Source: Aplysia californica | Lineage: Eukaryota | NCBI RefSeq assembly: GCF_000002075.1 | Contig: NW_004797305.1 | Span: 1,749,575-1,813,574 of the forward strand | DNA length: 64,000 nucleotides | Direction of reading: 5' to 3' | In this document: one piece after another, positions 43,245 to 61,081 of the stretch | How positions within the stretch are numbered: the first letter of the stretch is position 1 | How the letters are laid out: every line of letters begins with the position of its first letter | The notes under the pieces: model-generated | What the model was told of the DNA's origin: nothing | Databases searched by the model: none | What the model saw: only the letters and a program-made list of their open reading frames with translations | Made by a program: the position numbers and the translations under genes

Positions 43245-45651
43245 ATATATATACATATATATATATATGTTTGCGTGTATGTACATGTAAAGGAGGGAGA
43301 TGGACTGTTTTTGTTAGACCTAAAGAAGTGTTTTAAGACCTAGTTATTATTGTAGAGGGTTGTGCAGGCCAAGGTACCTAGCTTGATTTAAAAAGGATAC
43401 ATTTTGGTGGGAAGGCCAGGATATAGCTTGAGATATTCTTGACACCTTATTTGAGAGGAATAAACTGTTTTGTATAACATGTATGACAAGTGTGAATGAA
43501 AATATTAGTGCAGAGGTTTCTTTTATCCTTCTAGATCTAATTAACTTTCTGACTCGGTTTTTCCAATTTTCAGATTACTTTTGTGATTACTGTGCATCAC
43601 ATGTACTTGCATGTATGTATATGAATAAATTCTACATCTGTATACATACCTGCATTTTTGTGAATTCATTTCAGTGGGGCAGGTGTTTGAATGTATTAGA
43701 TAGGTTCTTAGAATAAAATGATGGTTCTTTAGCTGGGGTTGATGCTTGAAAACCAAGGTCTCAATGGGTGATTATAACTCCTAGGCCTTTGTGATAAGAA
43801 GCTCTCTCTTACTTTCATAGGTCCTCCATGAAATACTAATAGCCCTGGTGGGTGGCTGGGGGATGCTCTGGTGTTTGCTCCTTCTTTTGTATCAAACGCC
43901 TATCAGCCTATCATCCTTATCTCTCCTCCCATTCTTTTTATGTTACCCTCAATCTCTTTTTATTTAAATCGAACATCAATCATCCTTATCTACCCTCCCT
44001 CTTTTCCGGTATGTTACTCTCTAGCAACACCTCTAATCTTTGGTACTTTTTTATTTCATTCATTTGCTGAAAATACTGTATAATTCTTACTAAAACTAAC
44101 CTTAAGCTAACAGCCCTGGCTTAATTTAGAGACTTAGAGAGGCACTCTACATTGATATTTTAAAGCCCCTGTAGCACTTTGTAAATGGCTGTATTGTGTG
44201 ACACCAACTTTTGAAGACAGTGGAAAGCTGATGAAAAAAGTCACAACGAAGCTTGGGCCCCCAAAGAGACTTGGATCCTCACATGTGTCCTTTGTTTTAG
44301 CTGTAGATTGAAACTGCCAGTCCTGCTAAAATCTCGTCAGCCATACACAAACCTGCTCCTGGATTTACCATGAATTAATTAACATCATCCTTCTGTCCAC
44401 TAGACAGAGGCCTTCTTTCTGCATTATTGAAAAAGATGCCTTCCTTTTGTATCTCATCGTCTTGCTTCTCCTCTCCTCTTTCCAATTCAGTGTACATGCA
44501 ATCCCTTAAAATATAGCTGGAAGTTCATACTGTTGAAATTGTTCAAGGTGGCCACCCAATGTTGAGGAGACAAGGTTGTTATCTTAGACAGGTGGATGTC
44601 TAGGTCAGTTTCATTATAATATTATGTTTATTTAAAGCGAAAGGGGGAAAAGTTGGAAGTGGTCGTTTTTACAGGTGATTGTCTTGGAGAGGTGGCCATT
44701 TGAGCAGGTTCAACTGTATTTGGAAAGAAGCTACCAAGATGAATCAGTACCACTTGAACCTTTTATTTTTAATTTTTCTACACTCTTTTATATCTACAAT
44801 ATAGGCTACAGGTGTAGACATGTAAAAAATTATGTTGTTTTGTGGTTTGGCTTATTGTTTCCGTCATGATTTCTGCCCTAATCTGAACTCTTTGATTCCT
44901 GATCTCCACTTAAGTGGTGTTTTTGTTTCTGGGTTTTCAAAAGATCGCCAATTAAGTGGCGTTTTGGGGGTACCGATTTCATCAACCCCAAGATCTTCAC
45001 CTGGTCCTGTGCTACACTTACTATGTGTACTAATTTTTCTCAGTGATTGTCTGACCAGTTACGAATAGTTTGAGTGCTCACACAGAAGTATCAATGTTTG
45101 ACTGAATTATAACCGTTTTAGGCAACACTTTTCGCAGCCTCAAATTGAGAGCATAAAATTGTGGAACCCCTTGCATGCATGTGTACAGAAAGAGTTAAGA
45201 AAAAAAAACCAAAACAGGGAAGCACTTTCCAAAAAGTGTAAGGGAGGTGCAACAGTACACAGAAAAGGGGATAATTTTGTTGTATAAAGTATAAAAAAGT
45301 ACATATGATAAAACGTTTTACATTCAATAGCACATGTTTCAGTTAATTTAAACAGTTTCGAAACACATGTTATTACATATAATGTATAATTTTAGAGTAC
45401 TTTTTTGTTCTCATCTGTAGACTGACTGTGTTTGTCCGTGGCCTATACCGTGGGGCAGGGTGAGAAAGGCAATGATAATGATGATGATGTAGACTGACTA
45501 AGTGTAGTAGAAGTTGGAGCACAGAAAACGTTGTACTACATATTATCTGTGTCGTGTTGACTTCTGCAAGGGTGAAAATGGATCAGATTCTTCTTGCAAA
45601 TTTGCTGTGACATGTATACGGGGTTTTTTTTTGGTTTTTGTTATTGTTTTA

Positions 45652-49907: not shown

Positions 49908-52049
49908 TAATGATCAGTTGCCGAGGGGAAAGAAAAGACTGACGTGTGTATCTGCGACGTTCAACGCCGAGACCGCTAGTGCCGCCGCCCCCCCCCCTCC
50001 TGGACACGCACACACAGCCACACGTGTGCAGGCCGCAGTGCTTGCTCCAATACATGTTTTGCTCTATACGCACGCAATTGCATGCACAAATACATTTTTT
50101 TGCTATACACGTACACAATTGCGTGCAAGGTATCATACTTTGACACTATTCACGCAATTCCGTGCCGTAATGCCAAAGATTCTCTATTACTTGGATATTA
50201 TCTTGCTCCTTGGGCTTTTGTCCGCTCCATGGCGGGCCCGCTTTGCCGTTTATCTCGTGATGGGCTACGTCGCTAGGGGATGCGAGGTTAGTTTCATCGT
50301 CAACTGCTTGGGGTGTGTGTACAACTTTGTTTGGGGAGGAAAAGAGGAGGTACAGAATGGTACTGGTACAGGCTAAATTTATGGAAAGAGAATAACTGAG
50401 ATTGTTTAAAGATAACACAAATTAACACACACTCAAAAAAAGAACGAAAGGGAAAAAAAGGGTTTGGGGTGGGGTTCCTTTTTTTTTCAACCCACTGTCA
50501 AATTCACCTACCTCAGGTGGCCAGACGTGGTCTCGCATTGCCCAATGCTTTGACATAAATTTTGAATTGGCCCTTCACACTCTGGATGGGCCGCCATAAT
50601 CCATTGACCTGCCGTTGTTGTTAGTCCCTCCTGTAAATGTTTACCCAAGTTGACCAATGGGTAGGCTTAACATTACTAACAATACATTTCAACAGCTGGT
50701 AAGGGAAGCGTGATCCGTAATAACCTTTTAGCCCCATCCACAACTCATGCACAAATCATGTGTGAGTGTGAGGTGACTGGTCACTATTTTGTTTGCCTAA
50801 TCTGTAACAAAGTAACAATGGACTTTGACGTGAACTTGCAACAGAAGCATCGCTCGTTCTCCGAGTGGTGTCGACCCGTGTGTATGTTTTACCATGGCAC
50901 TCGGTCTTCATCGTCTTACTTACATAATGTTTAGTTTATTTTATCCTTGTACTAAACCAGCAACAAAAAGAAAGCTTACTGCAAACAAAAAAAAACCCAT
51001 CAAGACAACAAACAAAAAAACCCTTCTTACACCAGTACCCTCCGCCATTTTTCAAAAGAAAACTAATACCCTTTTGAATTAGCCCTACAGCAGTCTAAAG
51101 ACTGAGATCAGCCCTGGTTTGGACCTCAGAAGAGAATGATTTGCTTTTATTCATTTTGACTAGTCCTGCCTAAGACGACAACCTGTGTTATACGGCCTCT
51201 TTTCTCCTTGTCAATGGGTGGCCGTTTTACACAGGTTTGACTGTACACACAATTGTGGTGTTAAAGAAACTTCTGTTCAAGCAAACTATGATATCTTGCA
51301 CGCAATTGCTTGCGTATAGCAAAATTTGAATTTCTGTGCACGTTGTTGCGTGCATATAAACTCAGCCGTCCTAAGAGCAATCAAAGCGTTCCCAAGGGGG
51401 TTGCTGTTAAGCAGACTCCATGTACTGTAGTACTAGCACTAGATGAGAATGAGACAGGTTGAGCTGAATTCTGAATGGTGCCTGGCTAGGACTAGACTAG
51501 GACAAGAAGGGGGAAGAAATTCCAGATACTGGTGTACATGTACTGCCATTAAAACAGTAATTAGAAGTACGAGACCAAATACTAAGAATTATCATGACAA
51601 TAGGGGTTTAGACTGGACTAGACAGGCTAGGCTGGATCCTGGATGGTGCTTGACATGACACTTGACAAGGCCCAGGCTAGGACAAGGAAGGAGGAGAATT
51701 TCCAGTTGTGAATATCATGATGATTGTCAAAATACTGGTTAAAATTAAAATTTGTTTATAATTGTTTTGAATTTGAATTCTGTTTTAGTACATGATGTGC
51801 AATTTTTGTTGACTTGTTTGTCTGATAAATAAATAATAATATTATAATATATATATCATGATTTAATAAAAGATTGCTTCTACAGAGGTGACAGGAGATA
51901 AAAACAAAAATCAAATACAAACAAATAGATCGAACCATTGTCATTTAATCCTCTTTTTGTTTTCTCACATTGTTGAAATATTGTATTTATACCGCAACTC
52001 ACATTTTCTAAGACAATGATTTATATATGGATATTATAATACACTCATC

Positions 52050-52465
52050 ATTTAGAGCCATCATGTGGATATTCTGTCCTGGGCGCTTTGGAGTGAAGGG
52101 CAAGGAGGAGGCTGATAGGCTGGCAGGCAGTGACGTGGTTGATGGTGACGTGAAATTTGACAAAGGAGAGAAGTGTTGAAGATCCTGGAGGAAAAGTTGT
52201 GGGATGAAGAAGACAGGGAGACAGCAGAACACCACGCAATCATTAGGATGCGGGAAATGGGGATAGTGAGGGGAGAAGGAAGAAAGGAACGATTATCTGG
52301 AAAGGAAAGACGTCGCCATAATCAGACAGCTACTGGAACAATCAATATGGATACCTTGTGGGCTTTGGTGTTGTTGGGAACTGAGCACTTATGGACCTGT
52401 CCGGTGTGCAATGACGTTGTTGCCCAGGACCTGTCCGGTGTGCAATGACGTTGTTGCCCAGGACA
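52050..52465 (+). mobile_element. Decayed RNase H-containing LINE 3' end (Ingi-like)
   Basis: WIFCPGRFGVKGKEEADRLAG (RNase H C-terminus), then HNQTATGTI...LWTCPVCND; ends in a tandem duplication of about 34 bp; in-frame stop present. Confidence 0.7.
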
Positions 52466-52659
52466 GGCAATACCAGTATCAGAATAGGAAAATGTCCACT
52501 TTTTGACAAAGGCAGAAAAAAGTCAAGGAAAGAATTTGGTCTTGAGGCCAGTAGCAGTATATGAAGGGTTTGGGAAAGCTTGTAATATTCACTTACAATA
52601 TTCTGTCTTTTTTTTTTCTTGCAGTTTGAGTTGATGCTGCAAATGACAGTTTGTTTGCT

Positions 52660-55600
52660 ATGAAAATGAATCTGCCGCCGGATCGTCAAGGACACTTGAG
52701 CGATTTAATGTCCAAATCTGTTGGTGAGCTCAAAGAACTTCTTGAGAGACAAGAAAAAATTCTGTCTGGAAGGTAAAATCACATTGATTGCTAATGTAGT
52801 TACAACAAAATGTGGGTTTACAAAAACAGTTCGTATCTACTTTTATTTGGGATTCTATTTTGCATTTGTATTTTGTTTCAGTACTCTTGTTCAAGTTTTT
52901 TTGTGTATGCTGCACTAAAATTTAGTTTTGTGCCGAAGTAAGTTTACATGTCATGTCAGTTTATAAAGTCACTCTAACTAATTTTTTTAGCTGAATAGGG
53001 CTGCAGTTTATCATTTTGTTTTTATTTCAGTTCCTTTCTATTGTCCTGATGTATATTTTTCCTTTGGTCTAGAGGGAGAAAAGTGACAAATGGTGGACAG
53101 TGGAACCGGTAATGGTTTTTAGTCTCAAATGGAGGAATTTTGTCCCAGAGGTGCAATTCCAACTTGACACCTAGTACAGAGGTTGATGCCTGTGGTATTT
53201 GCTTTGTTAAGGTTTACCTGACCAGTCTGAAATATGAACATTCACAGCATAAGAAATAGCTCCATTTAGACCTTTAATATGAATACACAAACATAGCTGC
53301 TCCCCACTATGTAGTGCCCTTATTTACTGTAAATTATAAATGAATTTGGCTTGCCTTAATTTTGGAAGATCTTTGGTCATTTTTGGGGTTTTCTTTTAGT
53401 TCACTGAGTTGTAGATTTGCAATATCTTTGAAAGTCAAGTCTGTGCAGTATCTTCTTTAACCCTTAGATTCGTACGCCCTGGGGTCATTTTGTACCCCCA
53501 CGGTTGTATTCTTCACATTTTTAGAATACTTCCAGTACGAAGATCTTTTTGAAACTTTCTGTATTTCTCAAAAAATCATTTTGACAGACTGCCATGCAAA
53601 ACGTACGGATCGGATTAACGAGTAGATTTCCTCTTTGAAAGTGGTGGCACAGAGTTCCCCTCGTCGTATGGATACGATAGTAAAACACAACGTACAGATA
53701 AGGTTAACCTGAATAAACCACCGTTACTACCAAACCATTGACCAAAGTAATTTTTCTTTTAATATGTTTTGTTTTTTCTTCCTTCTTTGTTTCAGGGCAT
53801 TTCTTAAAACCTTGCCTGATAAAGGAGAGAGATGTAGAAAATTTGCAGAACATTTGAGAAATCTTATATCACAAAAGACTGAAGCATTTCGTCGTACCTT
53901 ACCTAGCCAAACTGACATGGATCATGTATCAGGGTTCAAGCAAATGTCAGATGTAGTAAAGATAAATACAGAAATCTTTGGTTCTGAATTAGTGAAAGAT
54001 GTGACAGAAAGGAAAGTAGGATTGTCTGCAGTTGCTGACAGTGGTGTTAAAGAAACTTCTGTTCAAGACCATATGGATATAGCTTCAAGTTTACAAGTGA
54101 GTCAAGTATATTTCAGTGTACTATGTACTGTAGTCTCCACTGAAGATCCCACCGCTTACAATCCTGGTTTACTTGAGATCCCGCTTTTTTAAGAAAACAG
54201 AATTTTTACTACACAAAAGTCACCCCTAAGATCCAGCTCTTAAGGATTACATTCATCATTCTACTAAGATCCCACATGTGAAATAATAATTTACGGAACA
54301 AAAACTTGGGGGGTGGGGGGGCACGCTTCATTTACAAGACAGTCAATACTTTCATGATGACCCATGGAAGTTCGAACACACAGTCTACACCGCAGCAGTG
54401 GAGTGTGTTAAGAGAAACACAAAGAACGCAAGTGATGGAGGCATACGCGACTCACACGGGCATTGAGGCAGCACGCGTGGACATTGGATCTAGCCTACGG
54501 CAAAGCTACACACAGACACAAAAAAATACAAAGAGAGTCGTGGAGACGAGAAAGGGAGGCAGGCCTCGATTTCACCTTTGACCCTTGCTATCCTTTAATC
54601 CTGATTGTGTATAACGCACGAGGTGGGATGAAGGCGGTGGTATGAATGTGGCACAGCGGACAGTGTTTGGTGTGTAGGCCTAGTGTGCTGTATCGTGACT
54701 GGCCGTCTAAATTAAGTTTTCATTCCCCGTTCGACCACCAAACAAAAACAAACAAGCAAACTAAAACTACCATGGGGGGTAAAAATAACAGTGCACACTT
54801 TTGCGGGACCGCTATGGGATTATAGGCCTACTTACAAATAAAGGGAAATAGCACGGGAAATTTTCTACATGAAAATCTCTGGATTATGTCCACTTCGCTC
54901 TCAAGCACGCTTCGGCATTAAGCACGCTTATGCTTTCTCCCGATGACCGTGCTTAAAGCCGGCATGGACTGTACTGCCCGTTGCGTCACAGGTCATCCAT
55001 TCTCGTGAAAGTGATCATAGCTCCATTGAAAGTCACGACGAAATGTTACTATGTTTGCCCCAGATGGGATCACACTGAGGTGGGAACTCGTCGATGCGTT
55101 TGTTTTCCGTATATATACATTACACTCGCACCTGAGCTCTCTACCTGAACTTACTTTACAATCTGGGTGGGTAGTGCCTACAAATCTGTATCGGATGGGA
55201 TCATATGGAACTGAACTCTTCAGTGCTTTTGTTTCCCTGTCCACTGCCGTGGTAGTTGTCCGTACACCCTAATTTGCTAGACAGACTGAATTTGAATTGG
55301 TGTGGTCACAATGCAATGTTGCGTTGCGACAAAAGCGGGGGAAACTCGGTCAGAGATGGAAAGCTGTCAATTTTTGGACAGGTAAAGTAAAGGGGAGGAG
55401 AAATAGAATCAGTCTAGATCTTGCGACTCACAATTGGATGAGTGTTGCCTTTGTCTTTGTAATCGGTCATCAAGGTTGACTACTCTTTGCTCCCCTTAAG
55501 TCTTATACCCACCCAGGGGTCACATCAGTTCGTTTCAGAGTAAGGGGAGACCATTTTACTAGTTGTGGGCCTGACCATGAGTCACAATAGATTATTCCCT

Positions 55601-58600
55601 TGGTGCGTCAGCAAAGATCTTGTTCGCCGTAGAAGTAAGATCCACATTTTCCTTGCTCTCAAGCACAGGGATCTTAGGCAGAGACTACCGTAGTACCCTG
55701 ATTTAGAGCCTCACTCTTATGATATGTAAATAATTGTTTTGTTAACATTTGAGCAACTTATTTATTTTCAATGAAACTGCTAAGCCCCATAGAAAAGATC
55801 AAGGCTTTTTGTTGTCAATTGCCTGTGACATTTAAGTAACATTGAGCCTAGATATGAAAAGAATGGAAGACAGAGAGAGGAAGTGAGAGAGACGGAGAGA
55901 TTCACATATATATGAGTCTATGAAAAAACGAAACAGAGAGAGTGGTAGAAACAGATAATTATGTATATATATATTACAACAAAAATGAAGTTGCTCAGCA
56001 CCAATTTTTCCAATACGCTAGTAATGGAAGAGTGTGCCTTTATAAATGCAAGAAAATTGTAAAATCCAGCTTTATTACAGTAGTCTTTGTTTAAAATGGA
56101 CTCAGGGGAAAATTAATTTAGAATTTAATGATAACATTTCGGCTTCTTGTGACTATATTTTGTTGAGGACAATAAAAGACTGATGATATTTTTATTGTAA
56201 TATTGGCTTTTTTCTGCATTCCCTTTACTTCAACTCATGTAAAGTTCACTGGGCTTTGAAGTCACACACCAAGCTACTTTTCTATCTTTTCTGATTTACT
56301 GTTTTCCTTGACTTTTAAAGAAGTAGGAAAATATAATTTGTGCTATATTATTTCATTTGCAGAAAATAAGCATCAGTCAACCTGGAGAAAAGAAGGTTTC
56401 AGAGACTGATGTGCCACAAAATGTTTTTGAGAGGGTTGTAAGAAAGATGGAGAGAGCAACACCTCAAGAAAAATTTATGCCCAACAGGTATAGTATTCTA
56501 TTTTTTAAGAAAACTTTCTACCAGTTGCAGTAATTTCGACAGTGCTTGCAGAGAAGGACTTTACTTTACTTTTACTTTTCCGACCCAGCGGCCATTTGGG
56601 TTCTAGCCCTTCGGTCTGTCGATATGGCAAAGAATTGACAGGTTTTAATCAGTTGTGCTTTGTACAGAGAAGGACAAAGACTCATATAATAGCACAGGAC
56701 TCTATTTACATTCATGTACACACACATTGACCATAATTAATATATCTACCAAAGTCTATCTATCCACTTAAATCCACCCTAAATTCTGTGGAATCATTTC
56801 AGACTGATGGCCCTGATAGTCTAGTAGTTAGGCTACCGGACTCTTGGGCATATTTGGTTGTTGGAGGCTCAGCCTTGTCTAACGTTGTGTCCTTGAAAAG
56901 GCACTTCACATGAAATTTCGCGTTTGGTTTAGTCCTGTTGGAGATGGACGTTACATTCAGAGGTCCCGCCTCTATAACCGTACAGTGTTGCAATGGAGGT
57001 AAAACCGATACAATTTCAAGTTCATTTTTTTTTTTTCATTTCAATCATTCACTGATTTACATACTTAAATGATGGCAAAACTCATTCTCTGCTTTACGAC
57101 TTTTTTCTTTGTTTTCTTGATCTTTGTCAACTTGGGACCTCATTAGTTTTTTAACACACGACTTTTTCAAGCCAATTGTACACTAAGAGCAAAGTTACAT
57201 TCTAATTATTGCATTACTGAATCAAATTGCTCGTTTTCATTTGTAGAGGAAAACCCTTCATTGCTTTGCCACCCTCAGAACTCTCAAGTCCAAGGCTGAC
57301 ACAAAGCAAACATTCCGCCCCCACACTGTGCCAAATACTAACGTTGTTGAGGAATCCAATGTGAGGCCTCCAGAGTACAAATTCAAGGAGTCAAAGCTGA
57401 TTTCAATCAACGAGTCTGTGAAACTCATAGATGAGCAGAGAGCAAGAAATGAGGTTGGTTAATTTCAGAAGACTTACTTTTTGCTTCTTTTACTTTCCGT
57501 TTTGTCGATATATATAAATATGGACCTGTACAGTAAAATTACATAAGCTGATACTGATTTTAAATCAAGAAAAGCAGTTTTTGTCTTCAAACTGATTAGA
57601 GTTTATTTTTGTGTGTGCTTGATAACCAGTGTCTGTAATAGCTCAGGAGCAACAGGGCTGGGCCTTTCTATTTGTTTTACTTCATTTTGTCAAAACTGTA
57701 TTCTCCACTTTCTTCTTCCTTCCATGTAAGGAAAACTGGTTCAGGTATTTTCAACAGCAAAAAACATTTTACTTGTGTTTCAGAAACTGATAGCTGAACA
57801 TGCTGCCCAACGGCTGGCTGCGCAACTTGTACCAAAGATGGCAACTTACTCAGGTCAAGGGAACATGCAGTATCCTTTTTGGGAGGTAGCTTCATTAATT
57901 TATTATTGGAAATTTAGAGAAATGTGTGACTAAATACTAGCTCTGTGCTTTTCTTCAGATGGAATACATACTCATTTTGACTCATGTTTTTGGGTATTTG
58001 TTTTTTTCTTTTGAATGAGTACTGTGACTGTGTGCAGTATACAGAATATGTGGTGATTTGTCATTTTTTTCTAACAGAGGGGGAGAGAGGGTTTAGAGAG
58101 ATTAGTTGGAAATGTATGCTCTGATTGATTGAGAGAGGAAGAGAGAGAGAGAGTGTGTCAGGGTTAATGCTTCCATTGACTTGAGAAAGTTCAGAAAGTA
58201 TAAATAGTCAACCTGGGCTATGGTCTTCTCTTCTGTCAAGCTATATTCCATCTCCTAGGTCGGAATCTAAGTCCCTCCTCAACATACTCTTAGGCCTTCC
58301 TTTCTTTCTCTTTCTGTGTAGATTCTATCATAAGGCTTAGAAGGTAATGTTTGTTTTCAGTTTTGAGATGGGTTCAATCCACTTTCATTTTCTTTCTAAA
58401 TTTCTCTTGATTTGTTAGCTCTAATAGAGTTGTATTCTTTTGGTGTCTGGTCAATTAATTTTGCCTGTGGGTATGCGTACGGCCTCCCGTACACATAGCC
58501 TCATAACTATGCGTACGGCCTCCCGTACACATAGCCTCATAACTATGCGTACGGCCCTCCCTCCCGTAGGCATAGCCTCGTGGCTATGCGTATGGCCCTC

Positions 58601-59837
58601 CCTACGTACGGCCCTTAGATTTAGGTAGAAGTACGCTCACGGCCTTGATAATCTCTCAGCTGGACCGCATCACTTTATCGATCGATATCTTGGCCAAGAC
58701 AAGATAGTTCACTCCTCTATAATTAAACCAATGAAAAAAAGTGTCCTCAATATTCGGTGGCGCCCTTTTCGAAAAAGTGCAGACTTTGCGATGTGTGTGA
58801 AAATATATGATAAAAGTGAAATTAACAAAGTGTGCTATTCCTATTCTTCTTCTGGTGAAACGAAAGAGAGCTTCAAAACAAAGACTGCAGAGTCATCTGA
58901 ACCAATGTGCGGACTTCCGCGGGCACCTTTTTGGCTGAGTGAACTATTTTGTTATGTACGATCTTTGGCCAAGAGACGCTCTACGAGGTCAAGATAACTT
59001 GCCAAGTCATTGGTCACTATTTATAACTTTGACCTGTAATTTACTACGTCATTTTCCATTAAAGGAATGCTGAAATTTTCCATTGAAAGAAGGTCAGCGT
59101 CTATGCCCTTTATAGCTGCTCGCTTCCCAATCAAAGTAGGTCGTCCCTATATATAGGGCCTGCGCGCTTCCCGGGTAGCCTGGCTCACGCCCTTTATAAA
59201 GGGCCTGTGCTTTTCCAGGGTTTAAGTTTTTCCACTTGTAGTGTCGGGTTTGATAGTTTATGTGCCGCCAACAAAGCCTAGCTTATTATGTGGAGTGGAG
59301 GGCATAGCCACTTCGATTAATTTTTAGTATTTTCTTAAGCAGCTAAAATATAGGTTACCGAGTATGAACAGTTTTTTTAAAACCAGCTAATAATGATCAT
59401 GTTGATGGCTTTTAATCTTCTTTTATTTTCATTTGAATTGTGAAGAAATAAAAGGATGGGTTCATGTTAGAGAATGGACTTTATGAAATCAAACTACAAA
59501 ACTGTTTCTATACTTATACCCTCACTCCCCCTATCCACCCCTCTCACATGTAATACAGGGAAGTTAAACTTACTCTTTGTAAGTCTTTTCCATCTAAAGG
59601 CTCAGTTACAGTACGGTACCCATTTATTTAGATGGTGCTTTGAATTGTCCTTGTTTCACATTATTTTACTTTAGCAGGGGAGTGGGTGCCATGTGAGAAT
59701 ATGGTTTGTCCTTAACTGTTCATAGATACAGGGAGCCTAAGCTACCAGAACAGGGAGACAGTGATGATGATGAAGATGAAGAGGAGACTCAAAATTTTCA
59801 GCCTGATGACGACGATGATGTTGATGACAATGTTTAA
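52660..59837 (+). CDS. POLR2M: RNA polymerase II subunit M / GRINL1A (Gdown1), about 303 aa. Exons 52660-52772, 53796-54096, 56363-56487, 57279-57453, 57784-57869, 59726-59837
   Basis: N-terminus SKSVGELKELLERQEKILSGRAFLKTLPDKGERC contains the Gdown1 LPDKG motif; also KFMPNRTLK, KLISINESVKLIDEQ, HAAQRLAAQLVPKMATY, YRE and an acidic tail. All exon phases are consistent when the last intron is spliced as U12-type. AATAAA at 59933-59938. Confidence 0.9.
53461..53703. mobile_element. piggyBac-like MITE (related inverted copy at 34260-34468)
   Basis: TTAA flanks on both sides, CC...GG ends; body aligns in reverse with 34260-34468. Confidence 0.7.
54128..55690. mobile_element. Tc1/mariner-like non-autonomous element in a POLR2M intron
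   Basis: Imperfect TIR CTGTAGTCTCCACTGAAGATCCC / GGGATCTTAGGCAGAGACTACCG, TA flanks, subterminal AAGATCC repeats; no transposase ORF seen. Confidence 0.7.
56559..56668 (-). mobile_element. Short 3' end of the same LINE family as 8630-9442
   Basis: Near-identical reverse complement of about 9335-9442, including the (AAAGT)n tail. Confidence 0.85.
57870..59725 (+). other. U12-type (minor spliceosome) GT-AG intron of POLR2M
   Basis: 5' site GTATCCTTTT at 57870; branch point TCCTTAAC at 59709-59716, with the AG at 59724-59725; no long polypyrimidine tract; splicing gives in-frame MQ|YREPK. Confidence 0.88.
58473..58612 (+). repeat. 36-bp minisatellite (two exact units plus degenerate units)
   Basis: ATGCGTACGGCCTCCCGTACACATAGCCTCATAACT head-to-tail, no spacers. 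Confidence 0.85.
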
Positions 59838-60156
59838 GCAGGCAGCATGTTCCAAGGTCCACACTCAAGGGAGATAACATGAAAGAAATTTCTCTGGCGA
59901 ATTCTCTTTTCTTTTCTGCTAAATCGTGCTTTAATAAAGTGCAGCCGTACCACAGAACTGAAAAAGTGATAAAATCTGGTACCAGGCCTTTTTCTGTTCT
60001 CTGTGCCATCATGCCACTGAAGATCTAAGGATACACATGGGACACACATGCTACTAACATGTGGGATCATCATTTTGTAGAGATGTTAGCGCTATGAAGA
60101 GAAATGCCACTCTTTGTGAGGATTTTGAGCCCCATAATTTTCACTGCTTGTTTTAA

Positions 60157-61081
60157 CTCACTTCAGACGCGTCACACAACAGTTGCGTGACCCCCGCCAT
60201 GACGCTCGCGACGGGTCTCACAAGCCCTGCGTGACCAACTTTGGAATTTTTTTTTCGCTCTACAAATCACGCACGGATCGCGAGACCCGCCTCGTACCCT
60301 TGTTTGGCCAAGCCTGAGCTACTTAAACTTCGTTTCGTATCTCTGGGGCCGGTAGTTTTTAAGTTATTGAAGGTGAAGGACAGTGACCCCAACTGGGGTT
60401 GAACAGACCGGAACTCGCGCTTTGTTTTTTTTCTATACAGCTCATAGTAATCCGACAGTCGCGTCGTAGTAACGGTCGAAGAAGTCGCATGAACAAGAAT
60501 CACATAATTTCGCCGTTTTCTATACTTCTGTGCGTTTTACTAGTTCTAGTGTCTCAGAATATGATGTGTCTAATAGTTAGGATCCTGGATATGTACCCGA
60601 ACACGGCCCGAGTCGTAGTTCTAGGGCTAGATCTAGCACTAGTACCGGTGTTGTTTTTCGCGCAACGAAATCACAACGTCGTGCCGTACATCTGTCTCAT
60701 GTAATTCAGTGTATGGGTCTGAATCAATTCACAGACCAGCTTTTATATTTCCACCAAACACTTGCACATGTATACAAATCAAACCAGAACACTTTGAACT
60801 TTTATTTTTGTTGTTGCAGTGAATTTCATTCTACTTGTCACGTCTCTGGAAATTTTTCGAAAATCAAATTCATGCCAATTTTTAAAATATCATACGAATT
60901 AAAGTATTAGACTTAGACAACTTTAGTTTTTTGTATTAGATTAAGCTTGAATGTTACTTTACTGTGTCAAAAAATGATTACAATAGGGTAATTCTGAGAG
61001 TTGTGGTGATTTATTTAAATTCCCCCCAAAACGCCAGTCTTCAACGCTTGTGACTGGTGAAAGGGCCCAGTCGCAAGTGAG
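60157..61081. mobile_element. TTAA-flanked non-autonomous DNA element (piggyBac-like)
   Basis: TTAA-CTCACTTCAGAC ... GTCGCAAGTGAG-TTAA; CpG-rich body contrasting with the flanks. Confidence 0.6.

Follow-up and report, generated by a model that had tools for sequence, protein, structure and literature searches.

A probable U12-type last intron beside the predicted cytoplasmic anchoring signal of Gdown1 in Aplysia californica

Human GDOWN1 holds a cytoplasmic anchoring signal (CAS) at residues 352-357; as reported in PMC9728996, shuttling between nucleus and cytoplasm is unlocked when its arginines are mutated, and GDOWN1 in the nucleus reduces transcription globally. The same report describes functional anchoring signals with one or two arginines in fly and zebrafish, and finds that the human CAS mutant accumulates in the nucleus only when export is blocked. 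The resolved regions of the protein that bind RNA polymerase II (Pol II) end by residue 334-344, and a second export signal covers residues 332-340 (PMC13443923). On the side of splicing, the closest described systems are the U6atac-controlled minor introns presented as 'molecular switches' (PMC3728624) and the unspliced U12 transcripts that the nuclear exosome targets for decay (PMC4066798). Here, we describe a probable minor intron in the Gdown1/POLR2M gene of the sea hare Aplysia californica (LOC101852079, six coding exons on the + strand), contained in a 64,000-nt stretch of genomic contig NW_004797305.1 (the window, whose numbering is used throughout). As in those systems, a full-length product would depend on a single intron of a slow class. 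The junction that this intron leaves appears to adjoin the start of the anchoring signal, which we regard as its most interesting point and which an earlier interpretation of the DNA (the sequence-only reading) had overlooked.

The last intron of the gene falls after the second base of the Gln267 codon (phase 2). It opens with GTATCCTTTT, in agreement with the minor donor consensus RTATCCT(T), and near its end carries TCCTTAAC, in agreement with the branch-site consensus TCCTTRAC, which places the branch adenosines at -12 and -11 from the intron end (terminal AG, 59724-59725). Within the window, GTATCCTTT begins only 2 of the 7300 GT dinucleotides on both strands, and TCCTTAAC occurs a single time on either strand; because the motif is unique, the 3 of 7948 AG dinucleotides that carry it at branch distance all follow the same copy. 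Taken as a product, the chance of both signals flanking one given junction is about 1e-7. A second perfect GTATCCTTTT lies at 43400 on the minus strand, where three-frame translation gives no evident exon before it, and is probably a chance occurrence.

The pairing potential of the donor also separates this intron from its neighbours. In register, it forms 6 Watson-Crick pairs and 1 wobble pair with Aplysia U11 small nuclear RNA (snRNA) and 4 Watson-Crick pairs with Aplysia U1, whereas the four other donors of the gene, along with two U2-like GT dinucleotides near the last donor, form 6-7 pairs with U1 and 0-3 Watson-Crick pairs with U11. The duplex energy with U12 (-7.4) does not discriminate by itself, as the T-rich acceptor of intron 1 reaches -7.6. 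The pyrimidine fraction at the last acceptor is 0.68, and that of the four U2 acceptors spans 0.63-0.95.

The signals were compared directly with those of scored human minor introns. The minor donors of human MAPK14 and POLR2E are identical to the Aplysia GTATCCTTT at positions +1 to +9, and the minor branch site of human PTEN is identical to the Aplysia TCCTTAACT over 9 nt (PMC6717393, Additional file 1). Phase 2 and the presence of a single minor intron among major ones are further likenesses to human GT-AG minor introns, and POLR2E is itself another Pol II subunit gene with a minor intron. Unlike those human rows, the Aplysia intron is the last of its gene and contains an insertion that resembles a miniature inverted-repeat transposable element (MITE). 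The last intron is very likely of the U12 type, and the proposal of the sequence-only reading, made from the donor and the branch point near the AG, is borne out by these signals, by U11/U12 pairing, by phase 2 and by the spliced junction.

That junction was seen in sequence that is probably RNA-derived. We examined 4 of 24 listed sequencing runs, namely X6 and the poly(A) runs X21-X23. In run X6, whose organism label differs from that of the DNA runs and whose status as RNA is a guess supported by the spliced contig itself, one contig (991 nt, depth 40.6) spans all five junctions of the gene, with no differing letter in its four listed exon pieces. It joins 57869 to 59726 unambiguously, with GT..AG ends and a shorter flank of 40 letters. 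Neither of the two U2-like GT sites near the donor is used in any of the joints listed. The minor spliceosome likely removes the intron at these positions. Its U11, U12 and U4atac snRNAs are each matched once in the Aplysia genome above the Rfam cut-offs (106.4, 134.2 and 91.3 bits, respectively). U1 and U2 snRNA genes alternate there in a tandem array with a period of ~3.08 kb (G000 C516, C2468).

The identity of the gene, which had also been proposed from the sequence, is well supported. Joined translation of the six exons (Table 1) equals the 303-aa RefSeq protein P0001 letter for letter, including the spliced C-terminus given by the sequence-only reading. The Pfam profile GCOM2 (PF15328) matches this protein with 37.3 bits against a curated cut-off of 27, the LPDKG motif is present, and the human GDOWN1 chain in PDB (28jc_M, 9t5h) is matched at E 7e-10. 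Toward the C-terminus, the helix and Tyr-Arg motif of Aplysia (residues 217-283) align with human 300-363; the LPDKG motif, helix alpha5, and the Tyr-Arg motif with its acidic tail are common to both proteins. A genome search returned one gene copy, as six matches, one per exon.

Table 1. Features of the Aplysia californica Gdown1 gene and its last intron, in window coordinates.
Feature	Position	Strand	Basis or remark
Coding exon 1	52660..52772	+	ATG at 52660; spliced contig covers exon from 52625
Coding exon 2	53796..54096	+	LPDKG motif (RPB10-binding region); Pfam GCOM2 E 3.9e-5; contig joints; human alignment
Coding exon 3	56363..56487	+	contig joints, translation
Coding exon 4	57279..57453	+	start of protrusion-binding helix; acceptor 57278; contig joints
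Coding exon 5	57784..57869	+	end of helix alpha5 and region like nuclear export signal 2 (NES2); last two bases belong to Gln267
U2-like cryptic GT in exon 5	57854..57855	+	no use among listed contig/read joints
Last intron, U12-type GT-AG	57870..59725	+	1856 nt, phase 2; contig joint 57869->59726, signals
U12 5' splice site GTATCCTTTT	57870..57879	+	agrees with RTATCCT(T) donor consensus
U2-like cryptic GT 16 nt into intron	57886..57887	+	no use among listed contig/read joints
Stop codon reached on intron retention	57931..57933	+	predicted 287-aa product, 20-residue tail
MITE-like repeat in last intron	58699..58952	+	16-nt terminal inverted repeats
U2-like pyrimidine tract with tandem AG (59674, 59677)	59655..59677	+	~50 nt upstream of U12 acceptor; no use seen
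U12 branch site TCCTTAAC	59709..59716	+	agrees with TCCTTRAC; pairs with Aplysia U12
Last coding exon	59726..59837	+	Tyr-Arg, putative counterpart of the CAS, and the acidic tail; stop 59835-59837
Candidate polyadenylation signal AATAAA 3' of stop	59933..59938	+	

How old the intron is was read from gene models, by scanning 169 related proteins for breaks at the intron site. Since a phase-2 intron that starts with RTATCCT gives x-Tyr-Pro when read through, such models can betray the intron type as well as its position. The models of the limpet Lottia gigantea (P0016, Tyr-Pro-Leu) and the scallop Ylistrum balloti (P0159, Tyr-Pro-Cys) run on at exactly this codon and then stop, and their relatives Patella and Mizuhopecten continue with Tyr-Arg at the same codon. 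Of the 7300 GT dinucleotides of the window, 28 would read on as Tyr-Pro, and for 11 the reading would be Tyr-Pro-[FLC], a background that is Aplysia's rather than Lottia's or Ylistrum's. Three further models break at the same spot (Batillaria P0018, Tegillarca P0022 and Candidula P0008), and Magallana P0078 joins an upstream exon there; these four are evidence of position, not of intron type. In Saccostrea echinata P0162, picked by eye, eight residues starting Asn-Pro-Leu are inserted at the intron site, which would fit either the bypassing of a U12-like donor altered at its second base or an assembly error. All 7 proteins broken at the intron site are from molluscs, and the other proteins scanned show no trace of it. 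Because the Lottia and Ylistrum models read on with Tyr-Pro at the same site, the intron likely dates to the ancestor of gastropods and bivalves, before their split, and is likely pan-molluscan; the great age suggested by the sequence-only reading is probably correct.

Other sources added little to this distribution. Two metagenome scans for genomic orthologs confirmed 0 of 34 and 1 of 424 matches, the confirmed one (L005) being a spliced message that is silent on introns, and four viral-contig scans confirmed no ortholog match. The vertebrate-type protein P0116 was rejected as a trace of the intron, as its end can be read as the normal tail in a shifted frame, and the Lingula proteins were not counted as breaks, both copies being without Tyr-Arg. 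The intron before exon 5 is common to Aplysia and a vertebrate-type model (P0121), whose read-through falls at the matching position.

Whether vertebrates lost the last intron or molluscs gained it bears on a further suggestion of the sequence-only reading, which held that human POLR2M lacks an intron at this position. Human POLR2M is not known to have an intron between the helix and the CAS. For minor introns in particular, POLR2M, GRINL1A and GCOM1 gave 0 matches in 8 supplement files of a survey of human and mouse minor introns (PMC6717393); the controls PTEN, MAPK14 and POLR2E were all present there. Intactness of 40 of 44 vertebrate-type proteins, with the other 4 broken elsewhere or differently, is weak evidence of intron absence. 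A minor intron missing from human is ordinary, which also counts against a switch: in a worked three-species example, 102 of the 136 minor introns common to Saccoglossus and Aplysia are reported to be common to human as well (PMC10639083), leaving 34 that are not.

An origin in the mollusc (or lophotrochozoan) stem, in place of an ancestral intron lost in vertebrates, would fit the molluscan origin of all 7 broken proteins and the lack of any trace in the others. For these other groups, however, most sequences are curated proteins or derive from transcripts, and such proteins cannot reveal an intron. Furthermore, recent gain of minor introns is described as rare and their loss as 3′-biased (PMC10639083), which fits the loss of a last intron. 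Given this rarity of gain and bias of loss, vertebrate loss is favoured over mollusc gain, and we consider an origin on the mollusc stem unlikely. 'Lost in vertebrates' is a plausible description, with data whose scope is the molluscs.

Together, these findings are best explained by an ordinary old minor intron, common to gastropods and bivalves, with most messages spliced and no dedicated switch, a reading to which we give a probability of roughly 0.8. Its material basis is a donor that matches U11, a branch site that matches U12 and has its adenosines 11-12 nt before the end of the intron, a spliced junction, and genes for U11, U12 and U4atac. By the known pathway, U11 and U12 would recognise both ends of the intron together and U6atac would catalyse its removal, making every full-length 303-aa Gdown1 dependent on the minor spliceosome. 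Where splicing lags, most of the unspliced transcript would probably stay in the nucleus and be degraded there, as with human U12 introns, and the main effect of such decay would be a modest brake on the amount of Gdown1. A message that nevertheless retained or mis-spliced the intron is predicted to encode all Pol II-binding regions, without the Tyr-Arg motif and the acidic tail and with an unselected, intron-encoded end. On this most probable account, production of full-length Gdown1 requires the minor spliceosome, and the intron does no more than restrict how much of it is made.

Several observations weigh against this account. The 57869/59726 junction has one contig and the RefSeq model behind it, and the raw poly(A) runs X21-X23 list no intron 5 joint; exon bins in these runs stay below 3x, and only three reads are listed at the gene's junctions, all at intron 2. 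U6atac was not found in the Aplysia genome search, a miss that does not show absence. Conservation of the intron is read from broken gene models in place of genomic DNA. Finally, exon signal fails to explain about 2750 depth-bases that X6 shows over the single-copy 5′ portion of intron 5, whereas it fully accounts for five bins at or inside the ordinary introns 1-4. This excess fits a piece of ~240 nt at depth ~12, against 40.6 for the spliced message, and could represent a retained intron at roughly a quarter of spliced depth; the piece is unlisted and need not touch an exon. An island of depth 12 also lies inside ordinary intron 2 in the same run, and two other intron-5 bins are empty.

The location of the junction within the protein makes retention worth considering in more depth. 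In a local alignment that opens a gap of two residues immediately before this stretch, Gln267, Tyr268, Arg269 and Lys272 of Aplysia align with human Arg352, Tyr353, Arg354 and Arg357, so that the junction splits the codon aligned to Arg352. At CAS positions 352, 354 and 357, Aplysia has Gln, Arg and Lys, that is, one arginine plus a lysine where human has three arginines. The downstream remainder is acidic (Asp or Glu at 18 of the 36 residues of the last exon). Because the Pol II-binding regions and the second export signal are all encoded upstream of the last intron, a retention product of 287 aa would be expected to retain the export-signal region and the ability to bind Pol II, and to lose both anchor and acidic tail. 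The 20-residue read-through tail is as the sequence-only reading had given it, with its stop ending at 57933; the gating of the acidic C-terminus that this reading put forward is a hypothetical role of the intron.

A regulated switch could be built on this arrangement, in which stress or cell state would lead to retention or intronic polyadenylation and the 287-aa Gdown1 would shuttle into the nucleus and damp transcription globally. Its appeal lies in the known effects of CAS mutation and of nuclear GDOWN1 on shuttling and transcription (PMC9728996), in Pol II-binding regions that end upstream of the junction (PMC13443923), and in the position of the intron as the last of the gene, such that retention leaves no downstream junction. 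The Ylistrum RefSeq model does end in read-through, and the unexplained X6 signal in the 5′ part of the intron points weakly in the same direction. Conservation of the anchor itself is mixed, as only the middle one of the three arginines is conserved in molluscs. We compared the 43 mollusc-like proteins of a set of 149, which remained after removal of 20 cluster members; two rows were mis-picked. Tyr-[Arg/Gln] is present in 41 of the 43, and 39 carry Arg at the middle position. Against the switch, Arg or Lys occupies the 352 position in only 6 and the 357 position in only 8 of 41 proteins.

The read-through tails argue against selection for a read-through peptide. Those of Aplysia, Lottia and Ylistrum (20, 15 and 11 residues) have nothing in common beyond Tyr-Pro, and their lengths fall inside the range expected by chance (median 14, quartiles 5-27, n=3587); such a peptide was rejected on both grounds. 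Intron-encoded hydrophobic ends can be degraded by a mechanism that involves BAG6. By grand average of hydropathy, the Lottia and Ylistrum tails are hydrophobic (1.01 and 0.70), and the Aplysia tail is only neutral (-0.13). Such hydrophobic ends are described as a route to degradation (bioRxiv 2022.07.20.500724). Moreover, the human CAS mutant still requires an export block for nuclear accumulation (PMC9728996), and human and mouse regulate Gdown1 without a listed minor intron. In mouse, 467 minor introns are reported without retention in any tissue, and those retained are shorter (PMC6717393). The known minor-intron switches (PMC3728624, PMC4066798) rest on measured retention and control mRNA level, in contrast to the relocalised protein proposed for Aplysia. 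We therefore regard a regulated switch as improbable. Still more doubtful is its extended form, in which a slowed minor spliceosome would yield anchor-less nuclear Gdown1 and a global brake on Pol II, kept since the gastropod-bivalve split and without a mammalian counterpart.

The sequence-only reading had also pointed to U2-like donors at 57854 and 57886. Both exist, and both pair with Aplysia U1 like the four ordinary donors (6 Watson-Crick pairs and 1 wobble pair); joining either to the 59674/59677 acceptors would give a truncated product. A mixed choice, in which the major spliceosome would use these donors with the 59674/59677 and 59697 acceptors for a real share of messages, nested with or competing against the U12 pair, is the least probable alternative: although the U1 pairing equals that of true U2 donors, a U2-like tract precedes 59674/59677, the 57854->59697 pair is in frame and keeps Tyr-Arg, and use of a cryptic donor with a cryptic acceptor is reported as a common event at mouse minor introns (PMC6717393), no joint of this kind occurs among those listed, one unbroken contig takes the U12 junction, and most cryptic combinations shift the frame.

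Repeats occupy part of the last intron and its surroundings. The MITE-like repeat has at least 40 other copies at 81-89% identity among those scored, from 2591 candidates in the genome. The intron also contains a 36-41 nt unit repeated three times in tandem (58483-58605) and an AG microsatellite (58122-58164). Interspersed repeats at 53468-53734, 54269-55069, 56540-56670 and 60143-60400 attract numerous divergent reads that stem from other parts of the transcriptome. At the 5′ end of the gene, the spliced contig continues for 116 more letters beyond 52625, which points to an upstream untranslated exon. An AG near 57246 was ruled out as the acceptor of exon 4 (start 57247), since reads put the exon start at 57279. 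An Rfam search of 52000-61000 gave no RNA match.

Outside animals, two short proteins of the fungus Rhizophagus irregularis (P0168 and P0169) carry the LPDKG motif together with a segment resembling the beginning of the C-terminal helix, and they end in acidic residues. They match the Gdown1 profile at E 2e-7 and 9e-6 and lie under the Pfam cut-off (20.9 and 21.4 against 27 bits). P0069, an animal-like Gdown1 labelled Ancora sagittata, comes from the transcriptome of a gregarine parasite, and host contamination is likely.

The novelty of the intron is lower than the sequence-only reading had assumed, as the RefSeq model already uses the 57869/59726 junction. Since the intronIC classification of annotated introns also covered the Aplysia genome (PMC10639083), the intron has probably been catalogued automatically, as an unremarked row of introns.info. 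A literature search found no paper discussing a minor or U12-type intron in POLR2M/GRINL1A/Gdown1, and the supplements of PMC11347168 and PMC10639083 hold no POLR2M or GRINL1A row, although these may not be gene-level lists.

What the locus adds is an old minor intron, located in a gene associated with Pol II and invisible from the human and mouse catalogues, and an explanation for the wrong C-termini in several mollusc Gdown1 gene models. If retention were regulated, the intron would connect the activity of the minor spliceosome to global transcription in a direct and testable way, by means of where Gdown1 is localised. Such a link would bear on whether minor introns act as functional switches or persist as neutral relics, and on the way in which the anchoring signal of Gdown1 is turned off, a point described as unclear in PMC9728996.

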